Of a DNA stretch of 64,000 nt, positions 13,569-62,159 are shown in pieces. The notes beneath the pieces were generated by a model, which saw only the letters and a program-made list of their open reading frames with translations, was not told where the DNA came from and ran no database searches. How positions within the stretch are numbered: position 1 is the first letter of the stretch; the number at the start of each line of letters is the position of its first letter. Source of the stretch: Eubacteriales bacterium OttesenSCG-928-K08 (GTDB lineage: Bacteria > Bacillota > Clostridia > Christensenellales > CAG-138); contig JAJDHH010000002.1 of the NCBI GenBank assembly GCA_030266105.1, positions 6,396 through 70,395 of the forward strand. Reading direction: 5' to 3'. Both the position numbers and the translations under genes were made by a program.

Positions 13569-15094
13569 TGGAAGTTTTGCATTTTGCCTTTGGCGTGTGC
13601 TTCGATGTGCCGGATATAAAGGGCGACATTACTCCGCAGCAGTTCTGGGAAGAGATTTTCTCCGTGCTGACCGTGAGCGATGTTAAGGGCCTGCATGTGC
13701 TTGGGGGAATGGTCAGCGCCGCCACATATGCCTCGCAGGATCCCTGCTATATTTGCGCTTTTACAAACGGCAGCCTCAAGCAGATGCGCCGCATATATAA
13801 AAAACTTTCAGCCGATGCAGGTGTGGGCATGTATTTAACAACAACCCGCCCATACCTTGAATCCAACGCGCTGGAAAAAATCGATGGTCTGACCTTTTTT
13901 GGGAAGGTTGAGCGCGATGGAACGCTTTGCGGGGCGCAGGAGGAGCTTTACGGCCTGCGCTTTTCCAAGCGGCGCGGCAAGCGCAGCCACGCGGGCAAGG
14001 GCATCGTTTTTCTGCTTGCGCCCGACTCGGTTGGGGAGTTAATCACAAGCAAGCAGGTTATCCGCAGGCTGACGATTGCAGCGCGCAGGCATTTTTCAGG
14101 CGTAAAGATACAGCCGTTCCCCATAGCCTACGGTGAGGCGGGCACGGTTGATGCGCTTTTGACCGCGGGCTGCGGCACTGAGCGCACAATTCAGGTTAAA
14201 GGGCCCGGAGCAGAAAAAATCGACGCACATTATGCCGTGCTTTATGGCAGCACCGCCGTTGTTGAAATGCCAAAGGAATTTGAGCAGGCAACAGCCCCAT
14301 GCTCCAGCTTTGGGATAGGCGAAATTATTCGCCGCGCGCTGGATGAAGGTTTAAACGAAATAATAATCAGCGATTCAAAAAGTCAGATTGGCGACTATGG
14401 GCTGGGCTGCCTTCGTGCGCTGGGCATCAAACTGCTTGATGAGCAAGGGCAGGAGCTGTCAGGCGGCCGTGAGGATATCGATAGGCTAAGCAGCATCGAC
14501 CTTGAGCTTGTGCACTCGCGCCTGCAGGAGGTTAAGTTTACGCTGATGACAAACGATTTGAATGTGCTTAACCGCAAAAACATAATTTCGCATGCGCTGG
14601 AACTTACGCAGGCTGAAAACAAAAGCAGATCAAAAAATCTCGATTTGTTTTGCGAGCTTGTGCCTGCGCTGTTAAAAACAGTGGGCGATATGCCAGGCTT
14701 GCACACATTGCTTGTGCCTGCTTTAAGGGCCGATTGCCGCCCGAGCGTGGATGCGCTGCTCGATGCAGTGCACTTTGAGAGTTACCTCAAGCGTGCCTCT
14801 CTAGTCATTACGGGTGAGGCGCAAAAGGGAATTTTGACGGATGGCCATCAGGGCCCGGCAATAAAAACTATTGTTGAACGCTGCAAAAACACAAAAACGC
14901 CCTGCATACAGTTTTTTGGCGTTGATGTTGAGCAGGGGCAGGATGAAAAGGTTAAGCGAGAGGCTTACAGCATGCTCACAACACTATACATTGCGGCCAC
15001 AAAAGAAGGAAACCGCGAAAAGGCAATTGCGTTAATCGATAACTTTGCGGACAGGCTTTTCAGGATAATCCGCATAGGCAGGGAGCTAAGCTGA
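13568..15094 (+). CDS. glycerate-kinase-family-like protein with degenerate motifs and an uncharacterised ~165-aa N-terminal extension
   Basis: Residues ~165-508 follow the glycerate kinase (GlxK/GarK) fold order: IVFLLAPDS..., PIAYGEAGTVDALL, AVVEMP, GIGEIIRRALDEGLNEIII, LVITGEA. The usual DGGEGT, GGSATNDGG and GEGxxDxQ motifs are altered. The start overlaps the ABC-F stop (TAATG). Confidence 0.65.
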   Translation: MEVLHFAFGVCFDVPDIKGDITPQQFWEEIFSVLTVSDVKGLHVLGGMVSAATYASQDPCYICAFTNGSLKQMRRIYKKLSADAGVGMYLTTTRPYLESNALEKIDGLTFFGKVERDGTLCGAQEELYGLRFSKRRGKRSHAGKGIVFLLAPDSVGELITSKQVIRRLTIAARRHFSGVKIQPFPIAYGEAGTVDALLTAGCGTERTIQVKGPGAEKIDAHYAVLYGSTAVVEMPKEFEQATAPCSSFGIGEIIRRALDEGLNEIIISDSKSQIGDYGLGCLRALGIKLLDEQGQELSGGREDIDRLSSIDLELVHSRLQEVKFTLMTNDLNVLNRKNIISHALELTQAENKSRSKNLDLFCELVPALLKTVGDMPGLHTLLVPALRADCRPSVDALLDAVHFESYLKRASLVITGEAQKGILTDGHQGPAIKTIVERCKNTKTPCIQFFGVDVEQGQDEKVKREAYSMLTTLYIAATKEGNREKAIALIDNFADRLFRIIRIGRELS

Positions 15095-25941: not shown

Positions 25942-26658
25942 ATGAACAAATGTTATGTGCTGATCGGAAACTTCGGAAGCGGAAAATCTGAAATCTCAAT
26001 AAACATTTCAATGCAGGCGGCTAAAAAAGAAAAAGCCGTGCTGGTCGATCTTGACATTGTTAACCCATATTTTCGTTCAGTCGAGCGCAAGGGTGAGCTT
26101 GAGGCTGCGGGCGTGAAGCTATATCATCCCATATTTGCGTTGACCACGGTGGATGTGCCCTCGCTCCCGCCCGACATATACTCAGTGTTTGTTGGGGATT
26201 ATGATACCGTTGTGTTTGATGTTGGCGGCGACCCTGCAGGAGCAACAGCGCTTGGGCAATATCGCGCAAATTTTGCAAAATTGCCCGAGGGTGTGCTTGA
26301 GGTGCTATACGTTATAAACCCGAACAGGCCGCTCTCATCATCACCCGAGCAGGTGCTTGAAATGCTGGAAAAAATCCAGTACCGTTCCCGCCTGCCTGTT
26401 TCGGGCTTTATAAACAACGCCAACCTTGCAGGTGAAACCAGTGCGGACGATTTGCTGCTGGGTTACGACATGCTTAAAATCATAAGCGAAAAAACTGGCA
26501 TCCCCGTTTCATACACCTGCGGCACAAAAACCGTGCTTGAGAATTTTGCGAAAATAGCAAAAGAGCGGGAGCTGAATGATAGATATATAGGCGAGTATAA
26601 GGAAATTCAAATATACATGCACAGGGATTGGGATAGGTTCACAACTCTTGGTGTATAG
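25942..26658 (+). CDS. MinD/ParA/CooC-like P-loop NTPase of unknown role
   Basis: Deviant Walker A LIGNFGSGKSE, then VLVDLDIVNPYF and DTVVFDVGGD (Walker B-like). GGAGG SD. Directly upstream of the 2-oxoacid oxidoreductase operon. Confidence 0.6.
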   Translation: MNKCYVLIGNFGSGKSEISINISMQAAKKEKAVLVDLDIVNPYFRSVERKGELEAAGVKLYHPIFALTTVDVPSLPPDIYSVFVGDYDTVVFDVGGDPAGATALGQYRANFAKLPEGVLEVLYVINPNRPLSSSPEQVLEMLEKIQYRSRLPVSGFINNANLAGETSADDLLLGYDMLKIISEKTGIPVSYTCGTKTVLENFAKIAKERELNDRYIGEYKEIQIYMHRDWDRFTTLGV

Positions 26659-45215: not shown

Positions 45216-45256
45216 GTATACTAGAGCAAGCAGCGAAACTCAAAGTGGGGGGTATT

Positions 45257-45961
45257 ATGGGTAACGTATTGATAGTTGTGGATATGCAGAACGATTTTAT
45301 GCTGGGCCCGCTCAGTACAAAAGAGGCGAGAAAAATTGTCCCTAACGTGGTGCGCAAGATTAAGGAGTTTGAGGGCAATATCATTTGCACAAAGGATACG
45401 CACCATGAAAACTACCTGCAAACGCAGGAGGGGAAGCTGCTGCCTGTGGAGCATTGCATCATTGGCACTGTGGGTCATGATCTTTGCGATGATCTAATAG
45501 AGCTTGAGCAATTGCAGCAGGCGCCTGTCTACATAAAAGAGACGTTTGCCTGTTTGGAGCTTGCGCAAATGCTTGCAAGCTACCTTGAGCCGGTGGATGA
45601 AGTTGAGCTGATTGGCGTATGCACGGATATTTGTGTGATCTCAAACGCGCTGCTGCTTAAGGCGATGCTCCCGGAAACGAAAATTGTTGTGGATGCATCG
45701 TGCTGCACGGGCGCAACGCCGGAGCTTCACCGGGCCGCGCTCGATGTTATGAAAAGCTGCCAGATAATAATACGCAATGATGAAGAAGAAGCGGACGAGC
45801 CCGCAGAGGATGTTAAAGAAGACGAAATTATAAACGATAGCGAATTTGTAATTAACGACAGGTTTTTAGGCGAAAAGGAGAATGCAAGCGACAGCCTGTA
45901 TTCAAGCAGTGAATTTTTAGGCGGAAACGAGCCTGAAAATGATGATGAGGATGCGGTTTAA
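45257..45961 (+). CDS. isochorismatase-family cysteine hydrolase (nicotinamidase-like) with acidic C-terminal tail
   Basis: ATG at 45257 after a G-rich SD. VVDMQNDF, the catalytic-Cys motif IGVCTDICV, and a ~75-aa Asp/Glu-rich tail. Confidence 0.8.
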   Translation: MGNVLIVVDMQNDFMLGPLSTKEARKIVPNVVRKIKEFEGNIICTKDTHHENYLQTQEGKLLPVEHCIIGTVGHDLCDDLIELEQLQQAPVYIKETFACLELAQMLASYLEPVDEVELIGVCTDICVISNALLLKAMLPETKIVVDASCCTGATPELHRAALDVMKSCQIIIRNDEEEADEPAEDVKEDEIINDSEFVINDRFLGEKENASDSLYSSSEFLGGNEPENDDEDAV

Positions 45962-47380: not shown

Positions 47381-48772
47381 ATGGATTTTTCAAGCGCAAA
47401 CACCGCCCTTTGGGGCGTTGTAATTCAATTTGGTATTATTGCAGCAATTATTCTTTTAGCTAATCTTTTGCGCCGCAAAATCAAGGTTATCAAAAAAAGC
47501 CTCATGCCAACGGCTGTGTTGGGCGGTTTTTTGCTGCTGCTGCTGCGCACATCGGGCATAGTAAAGGTTGACCTTGAAATTTTGGAGATGATCACCTATC
47601 ATGGCATAGCGCTTGGGTTTATCGCAATGTCATTGCAGGTGCCCGATAAAAGCAAAAAATCGGGGTCGGATCGTTTGGCCGCGCCTAAAAGCGGAGCGCT
47701 TATTGTGAGCACATATCTTGTGCAGGGTATAATTGGCCTTATCATTTCGCTGCTGCTTGTTTATACGATTATGCCGGAATTTTTTGCCGCTGCAGGCGTG
47801 CTGCTGCCCATGGGTTATGGGCAGGGGCCCGGGCAGGCCAACAACGTTGGCTCCACATACGAAAGCCTGGGCTTTATGGGCGGAAGGTCGTTTGCGCTGT
47901 CTATCGCGGCGGCGGGTTACCTTAGCGCGTGCATAGTTGGCGTAATTTATATATTTGTGATGAATAAGCGGGGTAAAATTGTCGTAAAGGACCAGGGCGA
48001 TATTTCAGGCTCAGTCACTGTGGATACTTTTCAGGATAAGGACGAAATTCCGATTTCTGAATCGATCGATAAGCTATCCATGCAGGTGGCGCTTGTTGTA
48101 ATCGTATATTTCCTCACGTATCTTGTTACAAGAGGCTTAAGCGGCCTTGCAGGCGCCTTGGGCGAGGGATTATCCGTAACGGTGTCCTCGTTGCTGTGGG
48201 GCTTTAACTTTATAATTGGTTCGGTAATCGCCATTTTGGCGCGCACCGGCTTAAAGGGCCTTCGAAAGGCTAAGCTGATGACAAGGCAATACCAAAACAA
48301 TTATCTCCTGAGCAGAATATCGGGGCTGGCATTCGATTTGATGATTGTTGCCGGTGTAGCTTCGATCGAAATTTCGGATCTAAGCGGGCTGTGGCTGCCA
48401 TTTGTGCTGATGTCTGTTGCAGGCGCGATCATTACGCTGATCTATCTGGAATGGATTTGCAAAAGAATATATTCAGGCTACTATTACGAGGGGATGCTTT
48501 CCATGTATGGCATGATGACCGGCACAATCAGCTCCGGCGTGCTGCTGCTGCGTGAGATTGACCCCATGTTTGAGAGCCCTGCGGCGAACAATCTGATAAT
48601 TGGCAGCAGCATGGCTGTTGTGTTTGGCGTGCCAATGCTGCTTTTGATTGGCGTTGCGCCTGAGCAGCCGTTGCTCACACTCATTCTGATGGTTATATAT
48701 CTGGCGCTGCTGCTGTTGTTTATGCTAAAATTTCAAGGCAGAAAAACCAAAACCAGCAAAAGACTAAAATAG
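47381..48772 (+). CDS. sodium/glutamate symporter (GltS/ESS family)-like transporter
   Basis: 463-aa polytopic protein. The N-terminal pattern ...LLANLLRRKIKVIKKSLMPTAVLGGFLLLLL resembles the GltS family. Confidence 0.65.
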   Translation: MDFSSANTALWGVVIQFGIIAAIILLANLLRRKIKVIKKSLMPTAVLGGFLLLLLRTSGIVKVDLEILEMITYHGIALGFIAMSLQVPDKSKKSGSDRLAAPKSGALIVSTYLVQGIIGLIISLLLVYTIMPEFFAAAGVLLPMGYGQGPGQANNVGSTYESLGFMGGRSFALSIAAAGYLSACIVGVIYIFVMNKRGKIVVKDQGDISGSVTVDTFQDKDEIPISESIDKLSMQVALVVIVYFLTYLVTRGLSGLAGALGEGLSVTVSSLLWGFNFIIGSVIAILARTGLKGLRKAKLMTRQYQNNYLLSRISGLAFDLMIVAGVASIEISDLSGLWLPFVLMSVAGAIITLIYLEWICKRIYSGYYYEGMLSMYGMMTGTISSGVLLLREIDPMFESPAANNLIIGSSMAVVFGVPMLLLIGVAPEQPLLTLILMVIYLALLLLFMLKFQGRKTKTSKRLK

Positions 48773-50362: not shown

Positions 50363-51862
50363 TTATTTGTGGTAAAGCTTATCGGTTGAGTATTCCGGTT
50401 CGCAGGTGATGCACACGCCCAGCTTGCGCAAGGTCGATTTATCCACATCGGAAAGCATAACGCTTGCGTGTGCATCGCTGCCGCGAAGCTTTGAAAGCTG
50501 AGCTAAAGCATGACCGGCTGTGGGGTTCGTTGCGGCGCAGATTGCAAGCGCAACGAGTATCTCATCCGTGTGCAAACAGGGGTTTTGGTTGCCCAGATGT
50601 TGCGTTTTTAAGCTTTGGATAGGCTCAATTACGATGGGGGACAGCAGCAGCATGTCCTCATGAATGCCGCCGAGCGCCTTAAGCGCGTTTAACAGCATGG
50701 CGGCGGTCGCGCCAATCAACGATGAGGTTTTGCCGGTGATAATCCGCCCGTCAGGGAGCTCGATGGCGCTCGCGGGCGCGTTTGTCAGCGCGGCCTTTTT
50801 AAGCGCCGCGCCTATTACGGGGCGCTCGTCCGCAGAAATGTTGGATTGGTTAAGCAGCAGCTCAAGCTTATACACCGGCGCGCTATCTGTAAGGCCGACC
50901 TTATAATCGCAGGCGGCGGCATAATGCCTGCGCAAAATTTCCTGGCGGGATGCGCGGCTGACAACATCGTCATCCACGATGCAATGGCCCACCATATTTA
51001 CACCCATGTCTGTCGGCGAAAAATAGGGGGAGCTGCCTTCAATGCGCTCAAACATCGCGTGCAGCACGGGGAAAACCTCAACATCGCGGTTGTAATTAAC
51101 TGCGGTTATGCCGTACTTTTCAAGGTGATAAGGGTCGATCATGTTCACATCGTTAAGGTCCGCAGTTGCGGCCTCATAAGCAAGGTTGACAGGATGCTTT
51201 AACGGGAGATTCCATATTGGGAAGGTTTCAAATTTTGCATAGCCGGATTTTATGCCCCGCTTCGAATCGTGATAAAGCTGCGAGAGGCAGGTGGCCATTT
51301 TCCCACTGCCGGGGCCCGGCGCTGTTACAACAACAAGGCTGCGCTCGGTTTTGATATATTCATTCTTGCCGTAGCCCTCATCGCTTACTATCAATGGAAT
51401 GTTAGAAGGATAGCCGGGAATGGGGTAGTGCATATATACACGAACGCCCAGCTGCTCCAGCCGGTTTTTGAAATGATCCGCTGCTTTCTGGCCGCTGTAT
51501 TGCGCTATTACAACGCTGCCGACATAAAGGCTTATATCCCTAAAAGCGTCGATAAGGCGCAAAACGTCCATATCGTATGTTATGCCAAGGTCGCCCCTGC
51601 GTTTGTTTTTTTCGATATCCGCCGCGTTTATTACGATCACAATTTCGGCCTGCTCGCGTAATTGCAAAAGCATGTTGACCTTACTATCAGGCCTGAAGCC
51701 GGGCAAAACGCGGGATGCGTGAAAATCGTCGAATAATTTGCCGCCAAATTCAAGATACAGCTTGCCCCCAAAGCGATCAAGTCGTTCCCTGATGTGCTGG
51801 GATTGCAGCTGTATGTATTTTTCGTTATCGAATCCTATGCAGGCGGCGGTGGATGGAGCCAT
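50363..51862 (-). CDS. DUF1846 (UPF0371) family protein
   Basis: Start trimmed to MAPSTAACIGFDNEKYIQLQSQHIRERL...GGKLYLEFGGKLFDDFHASRVLPGF, the UPF0371 N-terminal signature. GGGAGG SD 9 nt upstream. Confidence 0.85.
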   Translation of the reverse strand: MAPSTAACIGFDNEKYIQLQSQHIRERLDRFGGKLYLEFGGKLFDDFHASRVLPGFRPDSKVNMLLQLREQAEIVIVINAADIEKNKRRGDLGITYDMDVLRLIDAFRDISLYVGSVVIAQYSGQKAADHFKNRLEQLGVRVYMHYPIPGYPSNIPLIVSDEGYGKNEYIKTERSLVVVTAPGPGSGKMATCLSQLYHDSKRGIKSGYAKFETFPIWNLPLKHPVNLAYEAATADLNDVNMIDPYHLEKYGITAVNYNRDVEVFPVLHAMFERIEGSSPYFSPTDMGVNMVGHCIVDDDVVSRASRQEILRRHYAAACDYKVGLTDSAPVYKLELLLNQSNISADERPVIGAALKKAALTNAPASAIELPDGRIITGKTSSLIGATAAMLLNALKALGGIHEDMLLLSPIVIEPIQSLKTQHLGNQNPCLHTDEILVALAICAATNPTAGHALAQLSKLRGSDAHASVMLSDVDKSTLRKLGVCITCEPEYSTDKLYHK

Positions 51863-51963
51863 AAAAGAAAACCTCCCACTCATAAGTTAGTGAACACTCA
51901 TACCTGTCCTATCATAATGGTTTTGGGGGAGATTAGCAATCGAGATTTTGTCATATTCACTTT

Positions 51964-53079
51964 TTAGAGCGGAAGTTCATGCGCAAACGGTGAGTGCACA
52001 TCGTTTGTGCTCAAGCGCAGGCGCCATTCAATTTCGCTTTCGGGTCTGGATAGGTCGATGGGCATGCACGAGCTTCGTTTGGTGAGCGTTGGCGTAAGAA
52101 CGCGGTGCGAATAGGCTTCAAAATCATTTTGAATTTTGCCTACAAGTATGTTGACGGCAACATCCGCCATGGCAGCTTTAGGCTGCTCAATTGTGGTCAG
52201 GTTAATTTTAGGCAGCTGCGCGTATCGGATATTATCAAAGCCCAATAGAGAAATATCTTCAGGTATGCGGATGCCATATTCATCGGCCGCCTGCAGCACG
52301 CCCAGCGCAAATGTGTCGGTGCTGGCCTGTATTGCAGTAAAATCCTGCCGCTCGCGGAAAAGCTGGCGCGCCATTTCGTAGCCGTTGGTAATCGTTGTTG
52401 CGTCGGTATAACTATCAAAAAACATGGGTTCAACGCCATGCTGCAGGCAAGCATCCTGGTAGCCCATTGCGCGCAGGGTGTGGGTCGCGGTGGTAGAGCG
52501 CCGCCCAAAATAGAGTATGCGCTTGTGGCCGAGCGCCATTAAATACTCAGCGCCAATAAACGTGCCCCTGTAATTATCAACAGTCACATAGCTTTCGGGC
52601 GCTTCCATCAGGTTTTCGTTCACAAACACGGTTGGAACCTTATTGAGATATTTTTTCAGGTTCGGGTAACTATCCCTTGCGGTGGGGATTATTATGATGC
52701 CATCCACCTGCCGGCCAAGAACCAGGTTGATTGCTTTTTCCTCTTCCTTAAGGTCGTAGGATGAGCTGCACAGCATTATGCTATAGTCAAGCGAGCGGGC
52801 AATGCACTCGATATGGTATGCCATTTCGGACATAAACGGATTATCTATGCTTGGCAGCACAAGCCCAAGCAAGCGTGTTTCGCGCATTACCATCGAGCGG
52901 GCAACGTAATTGGTTGTGTAGCCCAAACGATCGCACACCTCAAGCACACGCTGGCGGGTATCCTCACGGATGGAGCTGCCGGGCGAAAGCGCGCGCGAAA
53001 CCGTTGCGTAGGAAACATTCGCCTCACGCGCAACGTCTTTTATGGTGACGGTTTTTTTTGTTTGGTTGGATGCGCTCAT
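51964..53079 (-). CDS. LacI family transcriptional regulator
   Basis: N-terminal HTH VTIKDVAREANVSYATVSRAL plus a periplasmic-binding-protein-like effector domain. Divergent from uxaE. Confidence 0.9.
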   Translation of the reverse strand: MSASNQTKKTVTIKDVAREANVSYATVSRALSPGSSIREDTRQRVLEVCDRLGYTTNYVARSMVMRETRLLGLVLPSIDNPFMSEMAYHIECIARSLDYSIMLCSSSYDLKEEEKAINLVLGRQVDGIIIIPTARDSYPNLKKYLNKVPTVFVNENLMEAPESYVTVDNYRGTFIGAEYLMALGHKRILYFGRRSTTATHTLRAMGYQDACLQHGVEPMFFDSYTDATTITNGYEMARQLFRERQDFTAIQASTDTFALGVLQAADEYGIRIPEDISLLGFDNIRYAQLPKINLTTIEQPKAAMADVAVNILVGKIQNDFEAYSHRVLTPTLTKRSSCMPIDLSRPESEIEWRLRLSTNDVHSPFAHELPL

Positions 53080-53097: not shown

Positions 53098-53111
53098 TGA
53101 AAACGTTTACA
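53098..53111. promoter_or_regulatory. LacI-family/cre-like operator O1
   Basis: TGAAAACGTTTACA is a 14-bp near-palindrome with a perfect AAACGTTT core. It lies 19 nt upstream of the LacI start codon. Confidence 0.55.
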
Positions 53112-53257: not shown

Positions 53258-53286
53258 TTGACACTCTAATTTGCAGCTTGTATAAT
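53258..53286 (+). promoter_or_regulatory. consensus sigma-A promoter of the uxaE-iol cluster
   Basis: TTGACA, 17-nt spacer, TATAAT: perfect hexamers. Confidence 0.75.
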
Positions 53287-53294
53287 GTAGTTGT

Positions 53295-53308
53295 TGCAAA
53301 CGTTTACA
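53295..53308. promoter_or_regulatory. LacI-family/cre-like operator O2
   Basis: TGCAAACGTTTACA begins 9 nt downstream of the -10 (roadblock position). Confidence 0.55.
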
Positions 53309-53311
53309 AAT

Positions 53312-53325
53312 TGAAAATGTTTACA
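53312..53325. promoter_or_regulatory. LacI-family/cre-like operator O3 (one core mismatch)
   Basis: TGAAAATGTTTACA lies 3 nt after O2. Confidence 0.45.
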
Positions 53326-53411: not shown

Positions 53412-54956
53412 ATGTGTAAGCTGAAGCATTTTGATCCACAGGCCAATCAGGACCCACAGTCTTTTGGAGTATACCCCAAATCCATCCATAAAACCGCAGA
53501 CGGCGCTTATGTTTACATGGCTAAGCAGGAAAATGGAAGGGATACGCTTGTCACATCCGATCCAAGCCTTTTTTCACAAAGCGAAACTTTTGAAAACGAT
53601 AATAAAACATATGCCTGCGCCCCGCTTTCGCATGAAAACGCGGCTGCGCTTCGCAAGCTGTTTCCGTTTACCGCGCCATCCCCCGTGCTCCGTAACGAGC
53701 GCAGCGTTGGCGTGGGGGATCGCCTTGGCATTGCATGTCCCGGGCATATCCGCGTGTTTGAAAAGTACGATGCGTTTCCTGTGTTTGCTCAGCAATCCAT
53801 ACGCGAGCTTACCCTTACAGGCCGCACATATGACAATGTGCTCGATTGCGTGACATTTTCAGTGTTCCGCGAGAATTTCACAAAGGGCTTTGGCGCGGAT
53901 GGCGACCATCTTAAAACGGCCGAAGAGCTGGAATATGCGCTTGGCTGTGGCTATACGATGATTACGCTCGATTGTAGCGAGCATATCCGAAACGATATCG
54001 GCGCAATGAGCGATGAACAGGTAAACGCCGAATACAAACACAATGCAGAACTCGAAAAAGAATACATGAACCAGTGCTTCCTCTTTGAGGGGCTTGCGCT
54101 GGTGTTTGATGAATTCAGCTTTAAGCGCATGACGCTCATCTATAACGATGCGATCGACTTTGCCGCGAGCATTTATGAGCGTTTCATCAAAGGCCGCGAT
54201 GATGTGGACTTTGAAATCTCAATTGATGAAACAGCCACACCCACAACACCCCTGCAGCATTTTTATGTGGTGAGTGAACTTATCAAGCGCGGTGTAAAAT
54301 TCCAAACCGTTGCTCCACGTTTTTGCGGTGAGTTCCAAAAGGGCGTGGATTACATCGGCGATATCGAGCAGTTCCGCCGCGAATTTGAAGAGCACGCGCT
54401 TATTGCCAAGCATTTTAATTACAAAATCAGCGTGCACTCCGGCTCCGATAAATTTATGGTTTTCCCCATCGTGGGCGAGCTCACAAACGGCCGCTTCCAC
54501 TTAAAAACAGCAGGAACCAACTGGCTTGAGGCCATGAAGCTCGTGGCGATGAAGGATGCGTCGCTCTACCGCGAGGTTCACGCATTTGCGCTTAGCGTAT
54601 TTGAGCAGGCAAAAAAATACTACCATGTCACAACCGATCTTTCGCGCATACCTGCGCTTGATACGCTCACCGATGCGCAGCTTCCCGGCCTGTTTGATCA
54701 AAATGATGCAAGGCAGCTTATCCACATCACATATGGAATTATCCTTACGGAAAAGAATGCGGATGGCTCGCTCCGTTTCCACGACAGATTATACGATCTG
54801 TGGAATAAATACGCCGATGATTATGCCGCTCTTTTAGAGGCGCACATTGGCAGACATCTGGAGCTTTTGTATAGCGGTTTCCATCACCATGGCGGCGATT
54901 GCTGCGGCCAGCACGAGCATAACCACGGCGGCTGCTGCGGCCACCACAAACATTAA
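53412..54956 (+). CDS. uxaE: tagaturonate/fructuronate epimerase UxaE with His/Cys-rich C-terminal extension
   Basis: Long collinear similarity to the Thermotoga UxaE sequence as I recall it: GDRLGI..PGHIR...FPVFAQQSIRE...TGRT..NVLD, GFGADGDHLK, DFEISIDETATPTTPLQHF, ISVHSGSDKF, HLKTAGTNWLEA, ARQLIHITYG. Ends with HHHGGDCCGQHEHNHGGCCGHHKH. Confidence 0.85.
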   Translation: MCKLKHFDPQANQDPQSFGVYPKSIHKTADGAYVYMAKQENGRDTLVTSDPSLFSQSETFENDNKTYACAPLSHENAAALRKLFPFTAPSPVLRNERSVGVGDRLGIACPGHIRVFEKYDAFPVFAQQSIRELTLTGRTYDNVLDCVTFSVFRENFTKGFGADGDHLKTAEELEYALGCGYTMITLDCSEHIRNDIGAMSDEQVNAEYKHNAELEKEYMNQCFLFEGLALVFDEFSFKRMTLIYNDAIDFAASIYERFIKGRDDVDFEISIDETATPTTPLQHFYVVSELIKRGVKFQTVAPRFCGEFQKGVDYIGDIEQFRREFEEHALIAKHFNYKISVHSGSDKFMVFPIVGELTNGRFHLKTAGTNWLEAMKLVAMKDASLYREVHAFALSVFEQAKKYYHVTTDLSRIPALDTLTDAQLPGLFDQNDARQLIHITYGIILTEKNADGSLRFHDRLYDLWNKYADDYAALLEAHIGRHLELLYSGFHHHGGDCCGQHEHNHGGCCGHHKH

Positions 54957-55023: not shown

Positions 55024-56223
55024 ATGGCAAAAATGAGAGGCGTTACTCTGGATGCAACATGGGCGCCCAAGCCGGAATTTAAGCTTGGCGCAAAGGACAT
55101 CGAAGGCGTACAAACATACCTGGGCAGCCTTGTTTGGAAGGATCCCAGCATCAGCATCAAAGAATACGATATTCCCGAGCCTGGCCCGGGTGAGGTTCTC
55201 ATTAAGCTTAAGGCCTGCGGCATTTGCGGAAGCGACGTTCACATGGCGCAAGCTAAGGAAGATGGCTACATCTTCTACCCCGGCCTGACCGGCTTCCCCT
55301 GCATTCTTGGCCATGAGCTTTCGGGCGTTGTTGTTAAAGGCGGCCCCGGCGCGAAGGATAAGGCAACAAACAAGCCCTTCGTAGGCGGCGAACTGGTTTG
55401 CGCAGAAGAAATGCTCTGGTGCGGTTCCTGCAAGCCCTGTGCTGATGGCTGGCCCAACCACTGCGAGCGTCTGGATGAGATCGGCTTTAACGTAAACGGC
55501 GCGTTCTGCGATTACATCGTGCTGCCCGACCGTTGCCTGTGGAGCCTTGAGCCCCTTCGCGCAACATTTAAGGATGAGAAGGATATCTTCCTCGCCGGTT
55601 CCCTGGTTGAACCCTGCTGCGTAGCCTACAACGCTGTTATCGAGCGTGGCGGCGGCATCCGCCCTGGCGACAATGTCGTCATCTGCGGCGCCGGCCCTGT
55701 TGGCCTGGCTGCATGCGCAATCCTCAAGCGTCAGGGTGCTGCAAAGGTCATCCTGAGCGAACCCCAGAAGGAACGTGCGGATTTGGCCCTCCAGATGGGC
55801 GCCGATGTTGTTATCGATCCCACGAAGGTTGACTTTGCACAGGAAGTTTTGCGCTTGACAGATGGCATGGGCGCAGCGCTCTACCTCGAAGCAACAGGTC
55901 TGCCCACAGTTGTGTATCCGGGCATTGAGCAGGCGATCTGGGAAGGCCGCACGCTTAACTCCACAATCGTTGTTGTTGCCCGTGCAGAAGCCAAAATGCC
56001 TGTCACAGGCGAAGTGCTCCAGGTTCGCCGCGCGAACATCGTGGGCGCACAGGGCCACTCCGGCCACGGCACATTCCCGCGCGTTATCGAGAGCATGGCT
56101 TCCGGCATGAACATGCTGCCCATGATCACAAAGCGCATCACTCTGGACGAAGTGCCCGAGAACGTCATCGCCCTGCAAACGGATCGTAAGAACTGCAAGA
56201 TCACCTGCGTGATGGACGACTAA
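55024..56223 (+). CDS. iolM: Zn-dependent medium-chain dehydrogenase, candidate scyllo-inosose 3-dehydrogenase (IolM-like)
   Basis: Start trimmed to MAKMRGVTLD (AGAGGTG SD). MDR motifs are CGICGSDVH, GHELSGVV, a structural Zn site CGSCKPCADGWPNHC, and the Rossmann motif ICGAGPVGLAA. The functional call rests on context with iolG, iolN-like, iolO-like and uxaE. Confidence 0.6.
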   Translation: MAKMRGVTLDATWAPKPEFKLGAKDIEGVQTYLGSLVWKDPSISIKEYDIPEPGPGEVLIKLKACGICGSDVHMAQAKEDGYIFYPGLTGFPCILGHELSGVVVKGGPGAKDKATNKPFVGGELVCAEEMLWCGSCKPCADGWPNHCERLDEIGFNVNGAFCDYIVLPDRCLWSLEPLRATFKDEKDIFLAGSLVEPCCVAYNAVIERGGGIRPGDNVVICGAGPVGLAACAILKRQGAAKVILSEPQKERADLALQMGADVVIDPTKVDFAQEVLRLTDGMGAALYLEATGLPTVVYPGIEQAIWEGRTLNSTIVVVARAEAKMPVTGEVLQVRRANIVGAQGHSGHGTFPRVIESMASGMNMLPMITKRITLDEVPENVIALQTDRKNCKITCVMDD

Positions 56224-56251: not shown

Positions 56252-57370
56252 ATGGCTAAGCAAAAAATCGATTGGTTAATGACCGATATGCCCGGCATCA
56301 TGTTTGAGGATACCACGGTTGGCCGCCTCAAAAAGGAAGTCTGGGATATGAGCGAAGAGCAGCTTGACGCTGTGCTTATGGAATACGGCATCCCCTCCGA
56401 GCCGGAGCTTGGTAAGGCCGGCTGCTACATTCAGAACACCCCACGCTGCAAGGTAATCGAAAAGCGCCGCAAGAACGACATCGTGTTTGTTCCCATCGGC
56501 TGCACGGAAAACCACGGCCTGCATGCGAATACAGGGCTCGACACATTTATGTGCACACAGATACTCGAAGGCGTGCGCCGCTACACTGCCAAGCAGGGCT
56601 GCGAAGTCAACCTCGCTTTCCCGCCGCTCAACTATGGCGGTCACCCCTACCACCACATCGGCATGCCCGGCACGATCAACATGCCGCACGAAGTGGTTGT
56701 AGAAACCCTCATCTACTGCATGCTCGGTCTGTGGAACGATGGCTTCCGCAAGATCATCCTCATCAACAACCACGGTCACCTGTGGATGCTCGAAGCCGCC
56801 ATTCAGGAGTTCTGCAAGCGCTTCCAGCTGCCCGGCCTCTTCCGCACACTGGAATGGCACCGCGCAGTTCGCGAGTTCTTCATCCCCAACAACAAGCCGG
56901 ATAGCCTTGACACCACATTCATCCATGCCGACGAGTGCGAAACCTCCGTTGCGCTGCTGATGTTTAAGGACATGGTTGACATGAGCGTTGCCGAGGATAA
57001 GTGGGGCGAAGCATACCTGCCCGATGGCCACTTCGACAAATCCATCGAGCCGCTGCGCCGCCCGCACCGCTGGAGCGAGGGCGAGGGCCATGCTTCAATC
57101 GAAATGGCGACAAACCGCGAAGGCGTTGTTGGCACACCCACAATCGCCGAAGCCCGCAAGGCAAAGCGCCCGATCGTTGCCATCCTCAAGTATTTAACAC
57201 TGCTTAACGAGCAGATCCTCGAAGCCTTCCCCGCGGGCACAGTGCCGCCGGTTGAAAAGACCACACTGCGCACCGAAGAAGAAATGGCCCCATACCTCAA
57301 GGAGCCTTTCTCCGAGGGCTGGAAGTCCGTGTACGAAATTCCGATGCGCGGCGTATTCACAAAACTATAA
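56252..57370 (+). CDS. iolN: creatininase-family hydrolase, candidate 3-dehydro-scyllo-inosose hydrolase (IolN-like)
   Basis: The creatininase-type metal-binding pattern is present (VFVPIGCTENHGLH, HADECETS). AGGAG SD. Functional call by context. Confidence 0.6.
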   Translation: MAKQKIDWLMTDMPGIMFEDTTVGRLKKEVWDMSEEQLDAVLMEYGIPSEPELGKAGCYIQNTPRCKVIEKRRKNDIVFVPIGCTENHGLHANTGLDTFMCTQILEGVRRYTAKQGCEVNLAFPPLNYGGHPYHHIGMPGTINMPHEVVVETLIYCMLGLWNDGFRKIILINNHGHLWMLEAAIQEFCKRFQLPGLFRTLEWHRAVREFFIPNNKPDSLDTTFIHADECETSVALLMFKDMVDMSVAEDKWGEAYLPDGHFDKSIEPLRRPHRWSEGEGHASIEMATNREGVVGTPTIAEARKAKRPIVAILKYLTLLNEQILEAFPAGTVPPVEKTTLRTEEEMAPYLKEPFSEGWKSVYEIPMRGVFTKL

Positions 57371-57557: not shown

Positions 57558-57591
57558 ATGGCCGCCGCAACTGCGGCGGCCATGCTTTTTT
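57558..57591 (+). terminator. intrinsic terminator between iolN-like and iolO-like genes
   Basis: ATGGCCGCCGCA / TGCGGCGGCCAT stem followed by GCTTTTTT. Confidence 0.7.
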
Positions 57592-57629: not shown

Positions 57630-58457
57630 ATGGATCGGATCATGAATAAAATATCACAAACCGTTCCCATGCAATATGACACCATATTTTCTCCATTTAA
57701 GGCGGACGAGTTTGATCATGCCTTGAGTTTTTTGGAGGAAAAAGGCTTTAGCGGCGTGGAGCTTGCGGTCGCTTACCCCAAAAAGGTAAACACGAGCGAG
57801 CTTAACAAAAAGCTCAACGCACATAATCTTGCCGCCACTACGCTTTCCACCGGCCAGATTTATGGGCTGGAGGGTTTGTTCCTCTCATCCTTTGATGATA
57901 ATGTGCGCAAAAACACGATTGATATCGTAAAAGGCCACATCGAATTATCGGCCGAGATTGGCTTGCCCGTGGTGACAATCGGCCTGCTGCGTGGTAAACT
58001 GGAGCAGGGTGAAATATCCGATTTGTTGGATAATTTTAAGCGCGGCTTAATGCCCTGCGTGGAGTATGCCTTTAAGCTTGGCGTAAAGCTGCAGGTGGAG
58101 CCGATCAACAAGCAGGAAACCGTGCTCATAAACAGCGTTAAGCAGTGCCTTGATTTTTTGCGTGAGTTGGGCGATCCTGAAAATGTCGGCATTCTCTATG
58201 ATGCGTATCACTCCGACCTTGAGGATGGGGACATGCTTGCGGCAATTAAGGCTGCTGCCGGGCGCATATTTAACGTGCACCTTGCGGATTCTCACCGGGG
58301 CCTGCCGGGTTATGGCGATATCGATTTCCCCGCAATGTACAAGGCAATACAGGCAACCGGTTACACAGGCGCTTATGCGCTGGAAACGCTTGTTATTCCA
58401 TCCGTAGAGTTTGTGAATGAGCATTGTTATCAAAGCGTTGTGGATATCATGAAATAA
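57630..58457 (+). CDS. iolO: xylose-isomerase-like TIM-barrel sugar epimerase, candidate 5-dehydro-L-gluconate epimerase (IolO-like)
   Basis: 275 aa with an AP-endonuclease-2/sugar isomerase TIM-barrel pattern (GFSGVELA..., LQVEPINKQET, HLADSHRGLPGYGDIDF). No clear SD; the alternative ATG at 57642 is equally possible. Functional call by context. Confidence 0.6.
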   Translation: MDRIMNKISQTVPMQYDTIFSPFKADEFDHALSFLEEKGFSGVELAVAYPKKVNTSELNKKLNAHNLAATTLSTGQIYGLEGLFLSSFDDNVRKNTIDIVKGHIELSAEIGLPVVTIGLLRGKLEQGEISDLLDNFKRGLMPCVEYAFKLGVKLQVEPINKQETVLINSVKQCLDFLRELGDPENVGILYDAYHSDLEDGDMLAAIKAAAGRIFNVHLADSHRGLPGYGDIDFPAMYKAIQATGYTGAYALETLVIPSVEFVNEHCYQSVVDIMK

Positions 58458-58488: not shown

Positions 58489-59502
58489 ATGATTAACATC
58501 GGAATCATTGGCGCTGGGCGAATTGGGCAGGTGCACGCAAAAAGCATACTGACCGGCGTGCCGGAAGCTAAAATTAAGGCGATTGCCGACCCGTTTATGA
58601 CGGAACAAACCGAGCAATGGGCAAAGAGCGTAGGCATTAACAACGTTTACCTCGATCATAAAAAAATAATCGACGATCCTGAAATTGATGCGGTGCTCAT
58701 CTGCTCATCAACAGATACGCATTGCCCAATTTCGCTTGAGGCGATCGCTGCGGGCAAGCATGTTTTCTGCGAAAAGCCGATCGATCATGATCTTGAGAAA
58801 ATCAAAAGCGTCATAAGCGCTCTTGAGGGGAAAAACATAAAATATCAGGTCGGTTTTAATCGCCGCTTTGATCACAACTTCCGCGCGGTGCGCGATGCCG
58901 TTGTCAAAGGCTCGGTTGGCGACATTCAGGTGATCAAAATCAGCTCGCGCGATCCCGCGCCGCCACCGATTGCCTATGTTAAGATTTCCGGCGGCATATA
59001 TCTGGACATGATGATTCACGATTTTGATATGGTGCGCTTCCTTTCCGGCAGCGAGGTAGATGAGGTCACGGCCTATGGCGCCGCGCTTGTTGATCCCGCT
59101 ATTGGCGAGGCCGGTGATGTTGACACCGCAATCGTTACGATGAAGCTTAAAAACGGCGCTTTGGCCGTGATCGATAATTCCCGCCAGGCCGTTTATGGTT
59201 ATGATCAGCGTGCCGAGGTGTTTGGCTCCAAGGGCTGTGTTGAATGCGGGAATGATCGTGCGTCAACCGCGGTAATCAGCACGGTGGATGGCGTAAACTC
59301 CGAAAAGCCGCTCTGGTTCTTCCTCGAGCGCTACATGGCGGCATATCAGCTGGAAATCCGCTCCTTTATCGATGCAATCGTAAACGATACGCCCACCGAG
59401 GTTGGCGTGGATGATGGCCTGCAGCCCGTGCTTATCGGCCTTGCGGCGAAAAAATCCATGGAAGAGGGCCGCCCGGTTAAAATTTCAGAAATCAGCATTT
59501 AA
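58489..59502 (+). CDS. iolG: myo-inositol 2-dehydrogenase (Gfo/Idh/MocA family)
   Basis: Rossmann IGIIGAGRIGQVHA, FCEKP and VGFNRRFDHNF are characteristic of IolG-type enzymes. AAGGAG SD. Confidence 0.75.
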   Translation: MINIGIIGAGRIGQVHAKSILTGVPEAKIKAIADPFMTEQTEQWAKSVGINNVYLDHKKIIDDPEIDAVLICSSTDTHCPISLEAIAAGKHVFCEKPIDHDLEKIKSVISALEGKNIKYQVGFNRRFDHNFRAVRDAVVKGSVGDIQVIKISSRDPAPPPIAYVKISGGIYLDMMIHDFDMVRFLSGSEVDEVTAYGAALVDPAIGEAGDVDTAIVTMKLKNGALAVIDNSRQAVYGYDQRAEVFGSKGCVECGNDRASTAVISTVDGVNSEKPLWFFLERYMAAYQLEIRSFIDAIVNDTPTEVGVDDGLQPVLIGLAAKKSMEEGRPVKISEISI

Positions 59503-59535
59503 ACATCAAATTCACTTAAAAGGAGCGTTGTGCAC

Positions 59536-60810
59536 ATGAGCATTTTTTTGAAGGATATGAGCGGCAGCGGGCTTACAAACGAGCAGATTCTTGGGGCGCT
59601 TAAAGACTCCATTAAGGGCAAAACCCTGCGCCGCGTGCTTATTATTCCGCCGGATTACACGCGCTTTCATTCAAACGCCGGCTTTATAACAAACGCGTAT
59701 TATCACATGCTTTGTGATATGGGCTGCGAGGTGGATATTTTGCCCGCGCTTGGCACGCATGAGCCGGTTTCAAAAGAGGAATGCGAGCTGATGTTTGGGG
59801 ATATCCCATACGAAAAGTTCATTGTGCACAACTGGCGCACGGATGTTATCCGCATAGGCGAAGTGCCGGGGGAATACCTTAGCGAAATTACGGACGGCCT
59901 GTGGGTTGACCCAATCAGCGTGGAGGTCAACAGGCTTGTGATGGATGAGCGTTATGATCTAATAATCTCGCCAGGCCAGGTTGTGCCGCATGAGGTTATC
60001 GGCATGGCCAACCACAGCAAAAACCTTTTTGTGGGCGTGGGCGGAAGCGAGATGATAAACAAATCGCACATGGTTGGCGCTGTGTATGGCATGGAGCGAA
60101 TGATGGGCAAGGATTTTACGCCCGTGCGCAAAATGTTTGATTATTCGCTCGAAAAATTCCTGAAGGATCGCCCCATACTTTTTGCGCTGACGGTTACAAC
60201 AGCGCCCGGCGGCAACATACACACGCACGGCCTGTTTATCGGTGAAAAGCGGGATGTGCTGGAGGCAGCCGTTGAGCTTGCGCAGCAAAAAAATATCGAT
60301 TTTGTGGAGCGCGGCATCAAAAAGTGCGTGGTGTATCTTGATCCTAAGGAGTTTAAGAGCACTTGGCTTGGCAACAAATCCATTTATCGCACGCGTATGG
60401 CCGTGGCGGATGGCGGCGAGCTAATCGTGCTCGCACCAGGCGTAACAAAGTTTGGTGAGGATGCGCAGGTGGATAAGCTCATCCGTAAATACGGTTATTG
60501 CGGCAGGCTTAATGTGCTGGAGCTGTTTAACAACCCGGAAAATGAGGATATCCGGCAGAACATGGGCGCAGCGGCGCATTTGATTCATGGCTCGTCCGAT
60601 GGACGCTTCAAAATCACTTATGCCGTTAAGCAAATCACAAAAGAGGAAATCGCCCAGGTGAAGTTCGAGCCTGCCGACTATGATGAGATGGCAGCGCGCT
60701 ATAATCCGGAAACGCTCGATTACGGCTGGAACACCTTGCCGGATGGTGAGGAGATTTACTTCATCCCCAACCCTGCACTGGGATTGTGGATTGATAAAAC
60801 CAGGTTTTAG
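59536..60810 (+). CDS. LarA-like (lactate racemase N-terminal domain / DUF2088) putative nickel-pincer-dependent racemase/epimerase
   Basis: The order IIPPDYTRFH, LPALGTHEP, DLIISPGQVVPHEVIGMANHSKNLFVGVGG, INKSH parallels LarA blocks SDHTRP, ATGFHRP, SHFFAGFSGGRKS and MANH as I recall them. ATG at 59536 lies 10 nt after GGAG. Confidence 0.7.
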   Translation: MSIFLKDMSGSGLTNEQILGALKDSIKGKTLRRVLIIPPDYTRFHSNAGFITNAYYHMLCDMGCEVDILPALGTHEPVSKEECELMFGDIPYEKFIVHNWRTDVIRIGEVPGEYLSEITDGLWVDPISVEVNRLVMDERYDLIISPGQVVPHEVIGMANHSKNLFVGVGGSEMINKSHMVGAVYGMERMMGKDFTPVRKMFDYSLEKFLKDRPILFALTVTTAPGGNIHTHGLFIGEKRDVLEAAVELAQQKNIDFVERGIKKCVVYLDPKEFKSTWLGNKSIYRTRMAVADGGELIVLAPGVTKFGEDAQVDKLIRKYGYCGRLNVLELFNNPENEDIRQNMGAAAHLIHGSSDGRFKITYAVKQITKEEIAQVKFEPADYDEMAARYNPETLDYGWNTLPDGEEIYFIPNPALGLWIDKTRF

Positions 60811-60813
60811 GTT

Positions 60814-60984
60814 TCAAAAAAGTGCGGCGGCTTTGCCGCACCTCACTTTTTTGAGAAACACCACATTTGCTTGTTCGGCTACGCCTCACGGACAGCAAAT
60901 GCTCTAAGGAGTGGGCTGCGCACGCGCATGTCGCGCTTGCCCACAGATTAAACATTAAGGGGCTGTGACCCCTTAATAATCCCC
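60814..60984 (-). repeat. structured intergenic repeat element, copy D (inverted, most diverged)
   Basis: The reverse complement reads GGGGATTATTAAGGGGTCACAGCCCCTTAATGTTTAATCTGTGGGCAAGCGCGACATGCGCGTGCGCAGCCCACTCCTTAGAGCATTTGCTGTCCGTGAGGCGTAGCCGAACAAGCAAATGTGGTGTTTCTCAAAAAAGTGAGGTGCGGCAAAGCCGCCGCACTTTTTTGA. Confidence 0.85.
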
Positions 60985-61161: not shown

Positions 61162-61503
61162 GTGTCCATCACAGCAGACCTTATAAGAGGACATACAGAA
61201 ACAATAATTCTGGCGCAGCTTTTAGAACAGGACAGTTATGGCTACAAAATAAACAAAGCCATACAAGCCAAGACGGATCATAAATACGAGCTGAAGGAAG
61301 CAACGCTCTACACCGCGTTTAAGCGGCTGGAAGAATCCGGATGCATATCATCCTACTGGGGGGATGAAAACAGCGGCGCACGCAGGCGCTACTATGCGAT
61401 TACCCCGCACGGGCGAAGAGAATATCTTATCCGCAGCGAGGAATGGAACACGGCAAAGGTTTTGATCGACAGACTAATTACCGATGGAGGTAGTCAGATA
61501 TGA
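61162..61503 (+). CDS. PadR family transcriptional regulator
   Basis: 113 aa with the PadR winged-helix pattern (HTETIILAQLLEQDSYGYKINKAI...EATLYTAFKRLEESGCISSYW...RRRYYAITPHG). GTG start after AGGAGG. Confidence 0.9.
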   Translation: MSITADLIRGHTETIILAQLLEQDSYGYKINKAIQAKTDHKYELKEATLYTAFKRLEESGCISSYWGDENSGARRRYYAITPHGRREYLIRSEEWNTAKVLIDRLITDGGSQI

Positions 61504-62159
61504 ATGAAAAGTTGCGCGAGCACATCGATATGCTTTTTGAAGAAGCCCCTTTGACCAGAAAAACAGTGGAAATAAAAGAAGAAATTCTGCAAAACCTAAT
61601 CGAAAAATATGAGGATCTTTTGGCGCAGGGCAAAACGCCCGAGGCCGCATACAATATCGCCGCGGCAAGCGTGGGGGATATCAGCGAATTGGTGGATGAG
61701 CTAAAGCGCTCAGGTGCGCATGATGGGTATAGCGAAAGCCTGTATCAAAAGCGCCAGCACACATCGCTGCTTCGCTCCATCGCGGTCGCGATGTATATCT
61801 GCTGCATAGTGCCGACAATTGTGTTCGATGGCCGCTTGGGCGCCGCGCTCATGTTTATTATGATTGCGGCGGCAACCGGGCTTATGATTTACTCCCGCCA
61901 GAATGGTTCGGGCGGAAAAAGGGCGGATACAGGTGTTATGGTTGATGATTTTAAGCAGTGGCGTTCGCAAAACAACGACCGCATGCAGCTGCTTAAATCG
62001 ATCAAAACAGCCGTGTGGACGCTGACTGTGGTGCTTTACATAATGATCTCATTTTGGACATCGGCATGGGGAATTACTTGGGTCATATTCCTCATAGCTG
62101 TGGCGGCGACCAACATTATTGAGGCTGTTTTTGACTACAAAAAGGAGGAAGGCCAATGA
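61500..62159 (+). CDS. PadR-associated membrane protein (DUF1700 / permease-prefix-like N-terminal domain + TM helices)
   Basis: ATGA overlap with padR. A soluble helical N-terminus (HIDMLFEEAPLTRKTVEIKEEILQNLIEKYEDLLAQGKTPEAAYNIAAASVGDISELVDEL) is followed by hydrophobic helices. Confidence 0.7.
   Translation: MNEKLREHIDMLFEEAPLTRKTVEIKEEILQNLIEKYEDLLAQGKTPEAAYNIAAASVGDISELVDELKRSGAHDGYSESLYQKRQHTSLLRSIAVAMYICCIVPTIVFDGRLGAALMFIMIAAATGLMIYSRQNGSGGKRADTGVMVDDFKQWRSQNNDRMQLLKSIKTAVWTLTVVLYIMISFWTSAWGITWVIFLIAVAATNIIEAVFDYKKEEGQ

Follow-up and report, generated by a model that had tools for sequence, protein, structure and literature searches.

A predicted nickel-dependent hexonate epimerase gene closing a Thermotoga-type inositol operon in Eubacteriales bacterium OttesenSCG-928-K08

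What reaction would a homologue of the lactate racemase LarA contribute to an operon for inositol breakdown? The question is raised by larAH18, which stands behind uxaE, iolM, iolN, an iolO-like gene and iolG in a stretch of 64,000 nucleotides from Eubacteriales bacterium OttesenSCG-928-K08 (assembly GCA_030266105.1, contig JAJDHH010000002.1, positions 6,396 to 70,395). This whole stretch is called the window below, and all coordinates are counted along it. We conclude that larAH18 belongs to group 18 of the LarA homologues, and that its product is probably, at odds of roughly two to one (about 0.68), a D-mannonate/D-gluconate 2-epimerase dependent on the nickel-pincer nucleotide (NPN). An earlier first-pass annotation of this DNA had proposed a C2 epimerisation of a sugar acid, for example between the gluconate and mannonate series, and that proposal is supported here by protein family, active-site residues, fold, placement in a neighbour-joining (NJ) tree and about 90 related loci. 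The gene, its flanking signals and the residues discussed below are as follows.

59536..60810, + strand: larAH18, group-18 LarA homologue (NF052594), predicted NPN-dependent D-mannonate/D-gluconate 2-epimerase
59520..59525, + strand: ribosome-binding site AAGGAG of larAH18, 10 nt 5' of the ATG
60822..60852, + strand: intrinsic-terminator-like hairpin and T-run, with a GC-rich 8 bp stem (6 GC pairs), beginning 12 nt past the larAH18 stop
Key residues of the larAH18 product: D40, R43, H75, H152, E153, V154, K162, H178, W277, L278, N280, K281, A346, A347, H348, L349, I350, H351, S353

The open reading frame (ORF) of larAH18 begins with the ATG at 59536, ends with a stop codon at 60808-60810 and encodes 424 amino acids. 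The ORF and the Lar_N pattern described in the first-pass annotation are thus real, and the length of 425 given there had counted the stop codon. An alternative GTG at 59530, six bases 5' of the ATG, would extend the protein by two residues; the ATG was chosen because its spacing from AAGGAG fits and because homologues measure 424 amino acids. Only 33 bp, containing no terminator, separate the iolG stop from this ATG, and because of this short spacing the two genes are read as co-transcribed. The hairpin downstream appears from its sequence to mark the end of the operon. Taken together, the short gap upstream and the hairpin with T-run downstream identify larAH18 as the final gene of the transcription unit, as had been suggested earlier.

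Membership of the LarA family is indicated by independent profile and structure comparisons. The product matches Pfam Lar_N (PF09861 / COG3875) with E=1.8e-12 (47.3 bits against a cutoff of 23.3), and the NCBIfam model NF052594 (NPN_18_hexonate, "nickel-dependent putative hexonate epimerase") scores it at 628 bits against an equivalog cutoff of 500 (E=6e-189), the match spanning model positions 4-410 of 411. Other LarA-family models in NCBIfam, for lactate racemase, malate racemases and LarAH10, reach only 23-45 bits. NF052594 corresponds to LarA-homologue group 18 of Desguin 2020 (PMC7583248; Sci Rep 10:18123). By sequence, the closest solved structure is 4NAR, the Thermotoga maritima protein TM0442/GntE2 (E=1e-32). 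An AlphaFold (AF2) model of the product (pLDDT 85.6, pTM 0.86), compared with the PDB by Foldseek, returned 16 matches with E<=0.001, every one of them LarA-family and the best again 4NAR (TM 0.81, E=3.5e-26); the predicted structure has the two-domain LarA fold. Given the E value on NF052594 and the return of LarA-family structures only, the family match is not due to chance.

Within the family, the window protein falls inside group 18 in an NJ tree, beside the members from Clostridium stercorarium and Treponema primitia. The tree is a simple one (BLOSUM62 distances, 14 sequences, with groups 1, 19 and 20 included) and carries no bootstrap support. Pairwise identities run the same way: 42-58% to group-18 members (57-58% to those of C. 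stercorarium and T. primitia), 26-27% to GntE1 and GntE2, and 19% to LarA. The LarA-like assignment made at first pass therefore agrees with the NF052594 score, the fold, the tree and the residue equivalences given below. What does not hold is the view of the family as uncharted, for it is already group 18 of Desguin 2020 and has an equivalog model of its own. The gene is a member of a described and curated branch, whose enzyme class, mechanism and phylogenetic group are already known.

Residues were mapped with HMMER and MAFFT alignments to LarA, GntE1, GntE2 and group-18 members, for which the Desguin 2020 dataset provided the sequences and residue assignments. D40 and R43 of the window protein correspond to LarA D72 and R75, H75 (in LGTHEP) to H108, H152 (in VPHEV) to H174, K162 (in HSK) to the NPN-tethering K184, H178 (in NKSH) to the nickel ligand H200, and K281 to K298. 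All seven are invariant in an alignment of 37 homologues. The four candidates named in the first-pass annotation (the histidine of LGTHEP, a further histidine and lysine, and the histidine of NKSH) thus align with LarA H108, H174, K184 and H200.

In the substrate pocket, E-V follows the second histidine, W-L-x-N precedes K281, and helix 14 reads G-A-A-A-H-L-I-H-G-S. The published group-18 pattern over 20 positions is D R H H E V K H V W L N K S/G A A L I H S (Desguin 2020 Table S3, PMC7583248). The window protein reads D R H H E V K H. W L N K G A A L I H S, the equivalent of LarA I220 being unmapped, and agrees with that pattern at the mapped positions. The marks of gluconate epimerases (GntEs) have been given as E, V, A and H at the positions of LarA F175, F176, W358 and T359 (Urdiain-Arraiza 2024, JBC). 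All are present, as E153 and V154 behind H152 and as A347-H348 in an AAAH motif that aligns to VAAH of GntE2. Among columns otherwise invariant in 36 homologues, the window protein departs at one conservative site, L339I; since this is the sole departure, there is no sign of decay, relaxed selection or changed specificity.

On these equivalences, NPN would be tethered to K162 and its nickel additionally bound by H178, with H75 and H152 serving as the acid/base pair. The configuration at C2 would be inverted in two steps, in which hydride passes from C2 to the cofactor and is then returned to the opposite face of the 2-keto intermediate. Such proton-coupled hydride transfer is established for LarA and assumed for LarA homologues that retain these residues (Desguin 2020, PMC7583248).

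Enzymes that resemble the window protein act on the predicted substrate. GntE1 and GntE2 convert D-mannonate to D-gluconate with NPN (PMC7583248), and LarAH15 of Phytophthora nicotianae acts on D-mannonate with a Km of 9.4 mM and a kcat of 111/s (Urdiain-Arraiza 2024, JBC 301:108069). The forward cloning primer of LarAH15 encodes MATLLFAEG, matching the MTLLFAEGSK of P. infestans PITG_09435, which is a group-18 entry. We place LarAH15 in group 18 because of this match, and a member of the group has thus probably been assayed already under that name.

The genes that precede larAH18, with the signals ahead of them, are listed here from left to right.

51964..53079, - strand: LacI-family regulator, divergently transcribed
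53258..53286, + strand: sigma-70-type promoter upstream of uxaE, TTGACA-17-TATAAT, 12/12 consensus positions
53295..53325, no strand: two adjoining LacI-type palindromic operator-like sites, TGCAAACGTTTACA and TGAAAATGTTTACA, just 3' of the -10 box
53412..54956, + strand: uxaE, tagaturonate/fructuronate epimerase (Pfam UxaE, 620 bits)
55024..56223, + strand: iolM, scyllo-inosose 3-dehydrogenase (NF041097, 511 bits against a cutoff of 450)
56252..57370, + strand: iolN, 3-dehydro-scyllo-inosose hydrolase (NF041098, 298 bits against a cutoff of 245)
57630..58457, + strand: iolO-like gene for a xylose-isomerase-type TIM-barrel epimerase, best match NF041099 (5-keto-L-gluconate epimerase IolO)
58489..59502, + strand: iolG, inositol 2-dehydrogenase (TIGR04380, 480 bits against a cutoff of 355)

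The start of iolM was placed at the ATG at 55024, which gives 399 amino acids as in relatives; the longest ORF would begin at 54847. The iolO-like protein scores 185.6 bits on NF041099, under the cutoff of 300. Its orthologues occupy the same operon slot in relatives at 69-72% identity, making it the least conserved protein of the cluster (IolN 85-90%). Because of the sub-cutoff score and this lowest conservation, its reaction can be assigned with less confidence than the reactions of its Iol partners.

Three palindromes of LacI type, with the pattern TG(C/A)AAA(C/T)GTTTACA, lie in the intergenic region ahead of uxaE, at 53098, 53295 and 53312, the one at 53098-53111 adjoining the LacI regulator gene. 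Across the window the motif has 6 matches on both strands, against 0.84 expected by chance. Read from these sequence signals, larAH18 is predicted to be co-transcribed with uxaE-iolM-iolN-iolO-iolG under a LacI-type repressor. A terminator-like hairpin at 57558-57583, with an 11 bp stem of 9 GC pairs followed by a T-run, lies in the 260 bp gap between iolN and the iolO-like gene; the same gap measures only 106-143 bp in relatives. No promoter is predicted downstream of this hairpin, which would divide the operon into uxaE-iolM-iolN and iolO-iolG-larAH18 and might serve to attenuate or partly terminate transcription or to stabilise the mRNA. A gene for a 506-aa DUF1846 protein (50363-51883, -; PRK13663 "hypothetical protein", 818 bits) follows the LacI regulator directly on the same strand and may be co-transcribed with it.

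How the gene is usually accompanied was read from its relatives. The protein search returned at least 8000 homologues, of which the best 120, from gut Clostridia, show 74-81% identity; one NCBI entry, P0001, is identical to the window protein. Context was sampled from 80 species loci found by contig search and from further loci obtained by exact-protein look-up. The usual module runs, 5' to 3', through a PfkB kinase, the 6-phosphogluconate dehydrogenase gene gnd, an optional HAD-IIB gene and an optional short-chain dehydrogenase/reductase (SDR) gene to larAH18 at the end, often with uxaC next. Counting loci with enough flank, gnd lies upstream of larAH18 in 62/66, the PfkB kinase in 52/56, the SDR in 41/69 and the HAD gene in 30/69, and uxaC (glucuronate isomerase) follows immediately in 25/67.

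On NF006132, "D-mannonate oxidoreductase", which has a cutoff of 281, the SDR of the relatives reaches 431-439 bits. Its identification as a gluconate 5-dehydrogenase was considered and rejected, since it reaches only 145-152 bits on that model (cutoff 279). With 768 bits, the dehydrogenase of the module is identified as gnd. The PfkB kinase (L001:5695-6774 and L008:6196-7275 in two of the related loci, with equivalents in 52/56) always occurs together with gnd and LarAH18 and is a candidate for a new gluconate or mannonate kinase. The gene between gnd and the mannonate oxidoreductase encodes a Cof-type HAD-IIB sugar phosphatase (L001:8237-9070, with equivalents in 30/69 loci).

The three closest relatives, P0002 (81% identity), P0003 (80%) and L008 (79%), carry a nine-gene array, uxaE-iolM-iolN-iolO-iolG-pfkB-gnd-SDR-larAH18. 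The window has this array minus pfkB-gnd-SDR, referred to here as the short form. A second metagenome-assembled genome (MAG) with the short form is that of Christensenellaceae bacterium OttesenSCG-928-L17 (locus L091; GCA_030265845.1, JAJDGU010000055.1, 1-6363), whose protein is 78% identical and which comes from the same project as the source of the window. Its larAH18 is preceded by a terminator-like hairpin and a 122 bp spacer, unlike the junction in the window, and this difference suggests that the loss of pfkB-gnd-SDR was independent or has been remodelled. With iolG upstream of larAH18 in only 2/49 species loci, the short form uxaE-iolMNOG-larAH18 is real and recurrent but rare. A different arrangement is seen at L058:10001-16431, where the gene for a LarAH18 of 74% identity precedes those for a LacI regulator, 2-keto-3-deoxy-6-phosphogluconate (KDPG) aldolase, an FGGY kinase, a D-2-hydroxyacid dehydrogenase and an SDR; this set of genes resembles an Entner-Doudoroff route more than the gnd path, and is again one of sugar-acid catabolism.

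Epimerisation of D-mannonate to D-gluconate is the parsimonious reaction because the partners found in relatives comprise suppliers of D-fructuronate (UxaC, UxaE, or the Iol enzymes with UxaE), a D-mannonate oxidoreductase, a C6-type hexonate kinase and Gnd. The pathway proposed would run from myo-inositol to scyllo-inosose (IolG), 3-dehydro-scyllo-inosose (IolM) and 5-keto-L-gluconate (IolN), and then to D-tagaturonate (the IolO-like protein) and D-fructuronate (UxaE). These first five steps are taken from the Thermotoga scheme as carried in NCBIfam model names. D-fructuronate would next be reduced to D-mannonate by the SDR mannonate oxidoreductase, D-mannonate epimerised to D-gluconate by the larAH18 product, D-gluconate phosphorylated to 6-phosphogluconate by the PfkB-type kinase, and 6-phosphogluconate converted by Gnd to ribulose-5-phosphate and CO2. 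Mannonate derived from inositol or from hexuronates would in this way enter the pentose phosphate pathway via 6-phosphogluconate. In the window's organism, the genes for the reductase, the kinase and Gnd would lie outside the window. We infer the substrate, whether kinase or epimerase acts first, the loading of the cofactor, and the presence elsewhere in the genome of the reductase, kinase, Gnd, LarB, LarC and LarE, none of which the window holds.

Several observations weigh against a free D-mannonate/D-gluconate epimerase. Pfam scans, which covered about 50 window ORFs and so essentially all plausible genes, and tblastn together found no SDR, PfkB kinase or 6-phosphogluconate dehydrogenase in the 64 kb; clustering with a reductase, a hexonate kinase and gnd is a property of the relatives, not of the window. 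The same searches found no larB, larC or larE in the window, and tblastn of 91 related loci, taken with 10 kb on either side (1.38 Mb), found none there. The queries were LarB, LarC and LarE from the Lacticaseibacillus paracasei plasmid lar operon, and no match reached E<=0.01. The PfkB kinase of the relatives falls under every equivalog cutoff, being nearest to the 2-keto-3-deoxygluconate (KDG) and IolC kinases and matching no gluconokinase model. Two basic residues invariant in group 18, R287 and K318, are E/Q and D/E/A, respectively, in GntE1/GntE2. The Km values of characterised GntEs for free D-mannonate are 9-120 mM (Urdiain-Arraiza 2024; PMC7583248), and because they are so high a different native substrate is conceivable. 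In the literature searched, no assayed bacterial group-18 enzyme was found, and the NCBIfam name still includes "putative".

The alternative that gains most from these points is that the native substrate is phosphorylated, with PfkB phosphorylating D-mannonate and LarAH18 acting as a 6-phospho-D-mannonate/6-phospho-D-gluconate 2-epimerase that feeds Gnd. A kinase-first order of this kind has been demonstrated in Lactobacillus suebicus, whose extracts contain a mannonate kinase activity as well as a 6-phosphomannonate 2-epimerase activity and do not epimerise free mannonate (Valk 2020, PMC6978723); a TM0442 homologue is present in the proteome (PMC6978723). The kinase, gnd and LarAH18 form the near-invariant core of the module (gnd 62/66, PfkB 52/56), the KDG and IolC kinases that PfkB resembles phosphorylate hexonate-like acids at C6, and the millimolar Km values together with R287 and K318 would also suit a phosphorylated ligand. 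Against this, FGGY kinases partner with GntE in T. maritima (as gluconate kinase) and with LarAH18 at L058. Because free D-mannonate is rapidly turned over by LarAH15 and GntE2, at 111-197/s (Urdiain-Arraiza 2024; PMC7583248), we consider a phosphorylated substrate unlikely, if still the strongest competitor to the free hexonate. The six-gene form itself, lacking SDR, kinase and gnd in two MAGs (the window and L091), could instead mean that the substrate of the short-form enzyme is one of the keto-acids of the inositol route. It might for example interconvert D-fructuronate and 5-dehydro-D-gluconate, the latter then being reduced to gluconate, or act on another hexonate or uronate (altronate, tagaturonate or 5-keto-L-gluconate). 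All intermediates after ring opening are 2-hydroxy acids, and a native substrate other than mannonate has been suspected for group 19 (Desguin 2020, PMC7583248). The specificity signature and the invariant columns are, however, identical in short- and long-form proteins, so that both are expected to share a substrate, and the long-form SDR is by its scores a D-mannonate oxidoreductase rather than a gluconate 5-dehydrogenase. A keto-acid substrate is accordingly improbable.

The absence of the lar genes from the 64 kb and from the neighbourhood of related loci, and of the three partner genes from the window cluster, could also be explained by an inactive apo-form or relic in a genome that is unable to make NPN and has had its kinase, gnd and SDR partners deleted. 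Such a relic is still less probable than a keto-acid epimerase: the ORF is intact, with a good ribosome-binding site and terminator, and every catalytic and cofactor residue is kept, L339I being the only departure and a conservative one. Moreover, the genes for lar biosynthesis as a rule lie apart from group-18 genes, and do so in complete genomes too (Desguin 2020 Table S1, PMC7583248). Their absence from the window and flanks fits this pattern and is uninformative on the genome beyond. The name "lactate racemase domain-containing protein" that NCBI gives to the identical P0001, and the Pfam Lar_N match, would suggest a lactate racemase, and this identity was rejected, its likelihood being next to nil. 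On the NCBIfam LarA model, with its cutoff of 460, the product reaches only 25.5 bits; it is 19% identical to LarA, the substrate loop is E-V where lactate racemases typically have F-F, and the gene context is one of sugar-acid catabolism. An NPN-dependent D-mannonate/D-gluconate 2-epimerase thus remains the preferred reading of larAH18.

Three genes 3' of larAH18 at L008, encoding 239, 269 and 416 amino acids, were considered by size as larB, larE and larC, and are actually ABC-transporter components. An isochorismatase/nicotinamidase-like gene is located at 45245-45961 (+), about 14 kb upstream of larAH18. NPN is derived from a nicotinic acid nucleotide. Nicotinamidase-related amidases are listed among the neighbours of LarAH group 19 (Desguin 2020, PMC7583248). 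The proximity of the nicotinamidase-like gene to larAH18 is probably a coincidence.

Elsewhere in the window, a glycerate-kinase-family protein of 508 amino acids is encoded at 13568-15094 (+). Its Gly_kinase domain begins at residue 148, and the N-terminal extension of about 147 amino acids has no Pfam match. Four ORFs have no Pfam family at E<=1e-5: 47381-48772 (+, 463 aa), 3753-4469 (-, 238 aa), 25942-26658 (+, 238 aa) and 61500-62159 (+, 219 aa).

The gene itself adds little; the new element is its context, a nickel-pincer epimerase within a Thermotoga-type inositol operon. In the literature searched we found no description of an inositol operon with a built-in nickel-pincer epimerase, nor of a nine-gene route from myo-inositol to ribulose-5-phosphate. 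The nine-gene array of the closest relatives predicts exactly such a route, complete and NPN-dependent. If this is true, group 18 would gain a physiological role, and the use of inositol and glucuronides by gut anaerobes would be tied to nickel and NPN supply. The larAH18 product is also a good bacterial candidate for deciding between free and phosphorylated hexonate substrates. Were the substrate phosphorylated, the module would supply the missing genes of the L. suebicus mannonate kinase/6-phosphomannonate 2-epimerase route, and the enzyme would have no known precedent among nickel-pincer enzymes in acting on a phosphorylated sugar acid.

Compared with known systems, the window protein is closest to group 18 (Desguin 2020), with which it shares a score above the equivalog cutoff, the signature, 42-58% identity and a branching point within the group. 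The published group-18 context of SDR, 6-phosphogluconate dehydrogenase, ribokinase-family kinase and UxaC (Desguin 2020) matches that of the window protein's relatives. The window differs in that the gene is joined to iolG, iolM, iolN, iolO and uxaE and lacks SDR, kinase and 6-phosphogluconate dehydrogenase neighbours; Table S1 of Desguin 2020 (PMC7583248) lists no inositol context for the group. LarAH15, which probably belongs to the same group, has the same E, V, A, H pocket and differs in being eukaryotic; the window protein is about 48% identical to a diatom group-18 member.

GntE2 (TM0442, 4NAR), of LarAH group 20, is a proven NPN-dependent D-gluconate 2-epimerase (PMC7583248). It resembles the window protein in fold (TM 0.81), in its catalytic and NPN residues, and in a similar substrate loop (E-S in GntE2, E-V in the window protein). 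T. maritima and the relatives of the window protein also share an operon logic of gnd, uxaE, an SDR reductase, a LarA homologue and a kinase. GntE2 differs in its 27% identity, in its phylogenetic group and in having an FGGY-type instead of a PfkB kinase as partner; group 18 has N280 where GntE2 has Gly, and the additional invariant R287 and K318. The first-pass annotation had taken C2 epimerisation for a step outside the described Thermotoga route. This must be withdrawn, for the T. maritima hexuronate operon gnd-uxaRED-gntEK carries gntE (PMC3750489) and the activity of GntE2 has been shown (PMC7583248). LarA of Lactiplantibacillus plantarum (5HUQ) belongs to the same superfamily and has the same two-domain fold. 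At 19% identity it is much further removed, its pocket residues F175/F176 and Y294/Q295/V297 being replaced by E/V and W/L/N in the window protein, and the window gene, unlike that of LarA, adjoins no larBCDE operon and has a hexonate, not lactate, as its predicted substrate.

The inositol genes follow the Thermotoga pathway, in that IolG, IolM and IolN score above their equivalog cutoffs and UxaE and an IolO-like epimerase are present. Rodionova and colleagues reportedly described, in 2013, the T. maritima myo-inositol pathway through IolG, IolM, IolN and IolO to D-tagaturonate, and are said to have described the UxaE hexuronate network of Thermotoga in 2012. In Thermotoga the inositol and uxa/gnt loci form separate regulons, whereas in the window the inositol genes, uxaE and the LarA homologue lie in one operon. 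The exit also differs, leading in the window's close relatives through gluconate and 6-phosphogluconate and in Thermotoga through KDG. The mannonate route of L. suebicus (Valk 2020) likewise leads overall from mannonate to 6-phosphogluconate, with 6-phosphogluconate dehydrogenase acting next, and differs from the order preferred here in placing the kinase step first.

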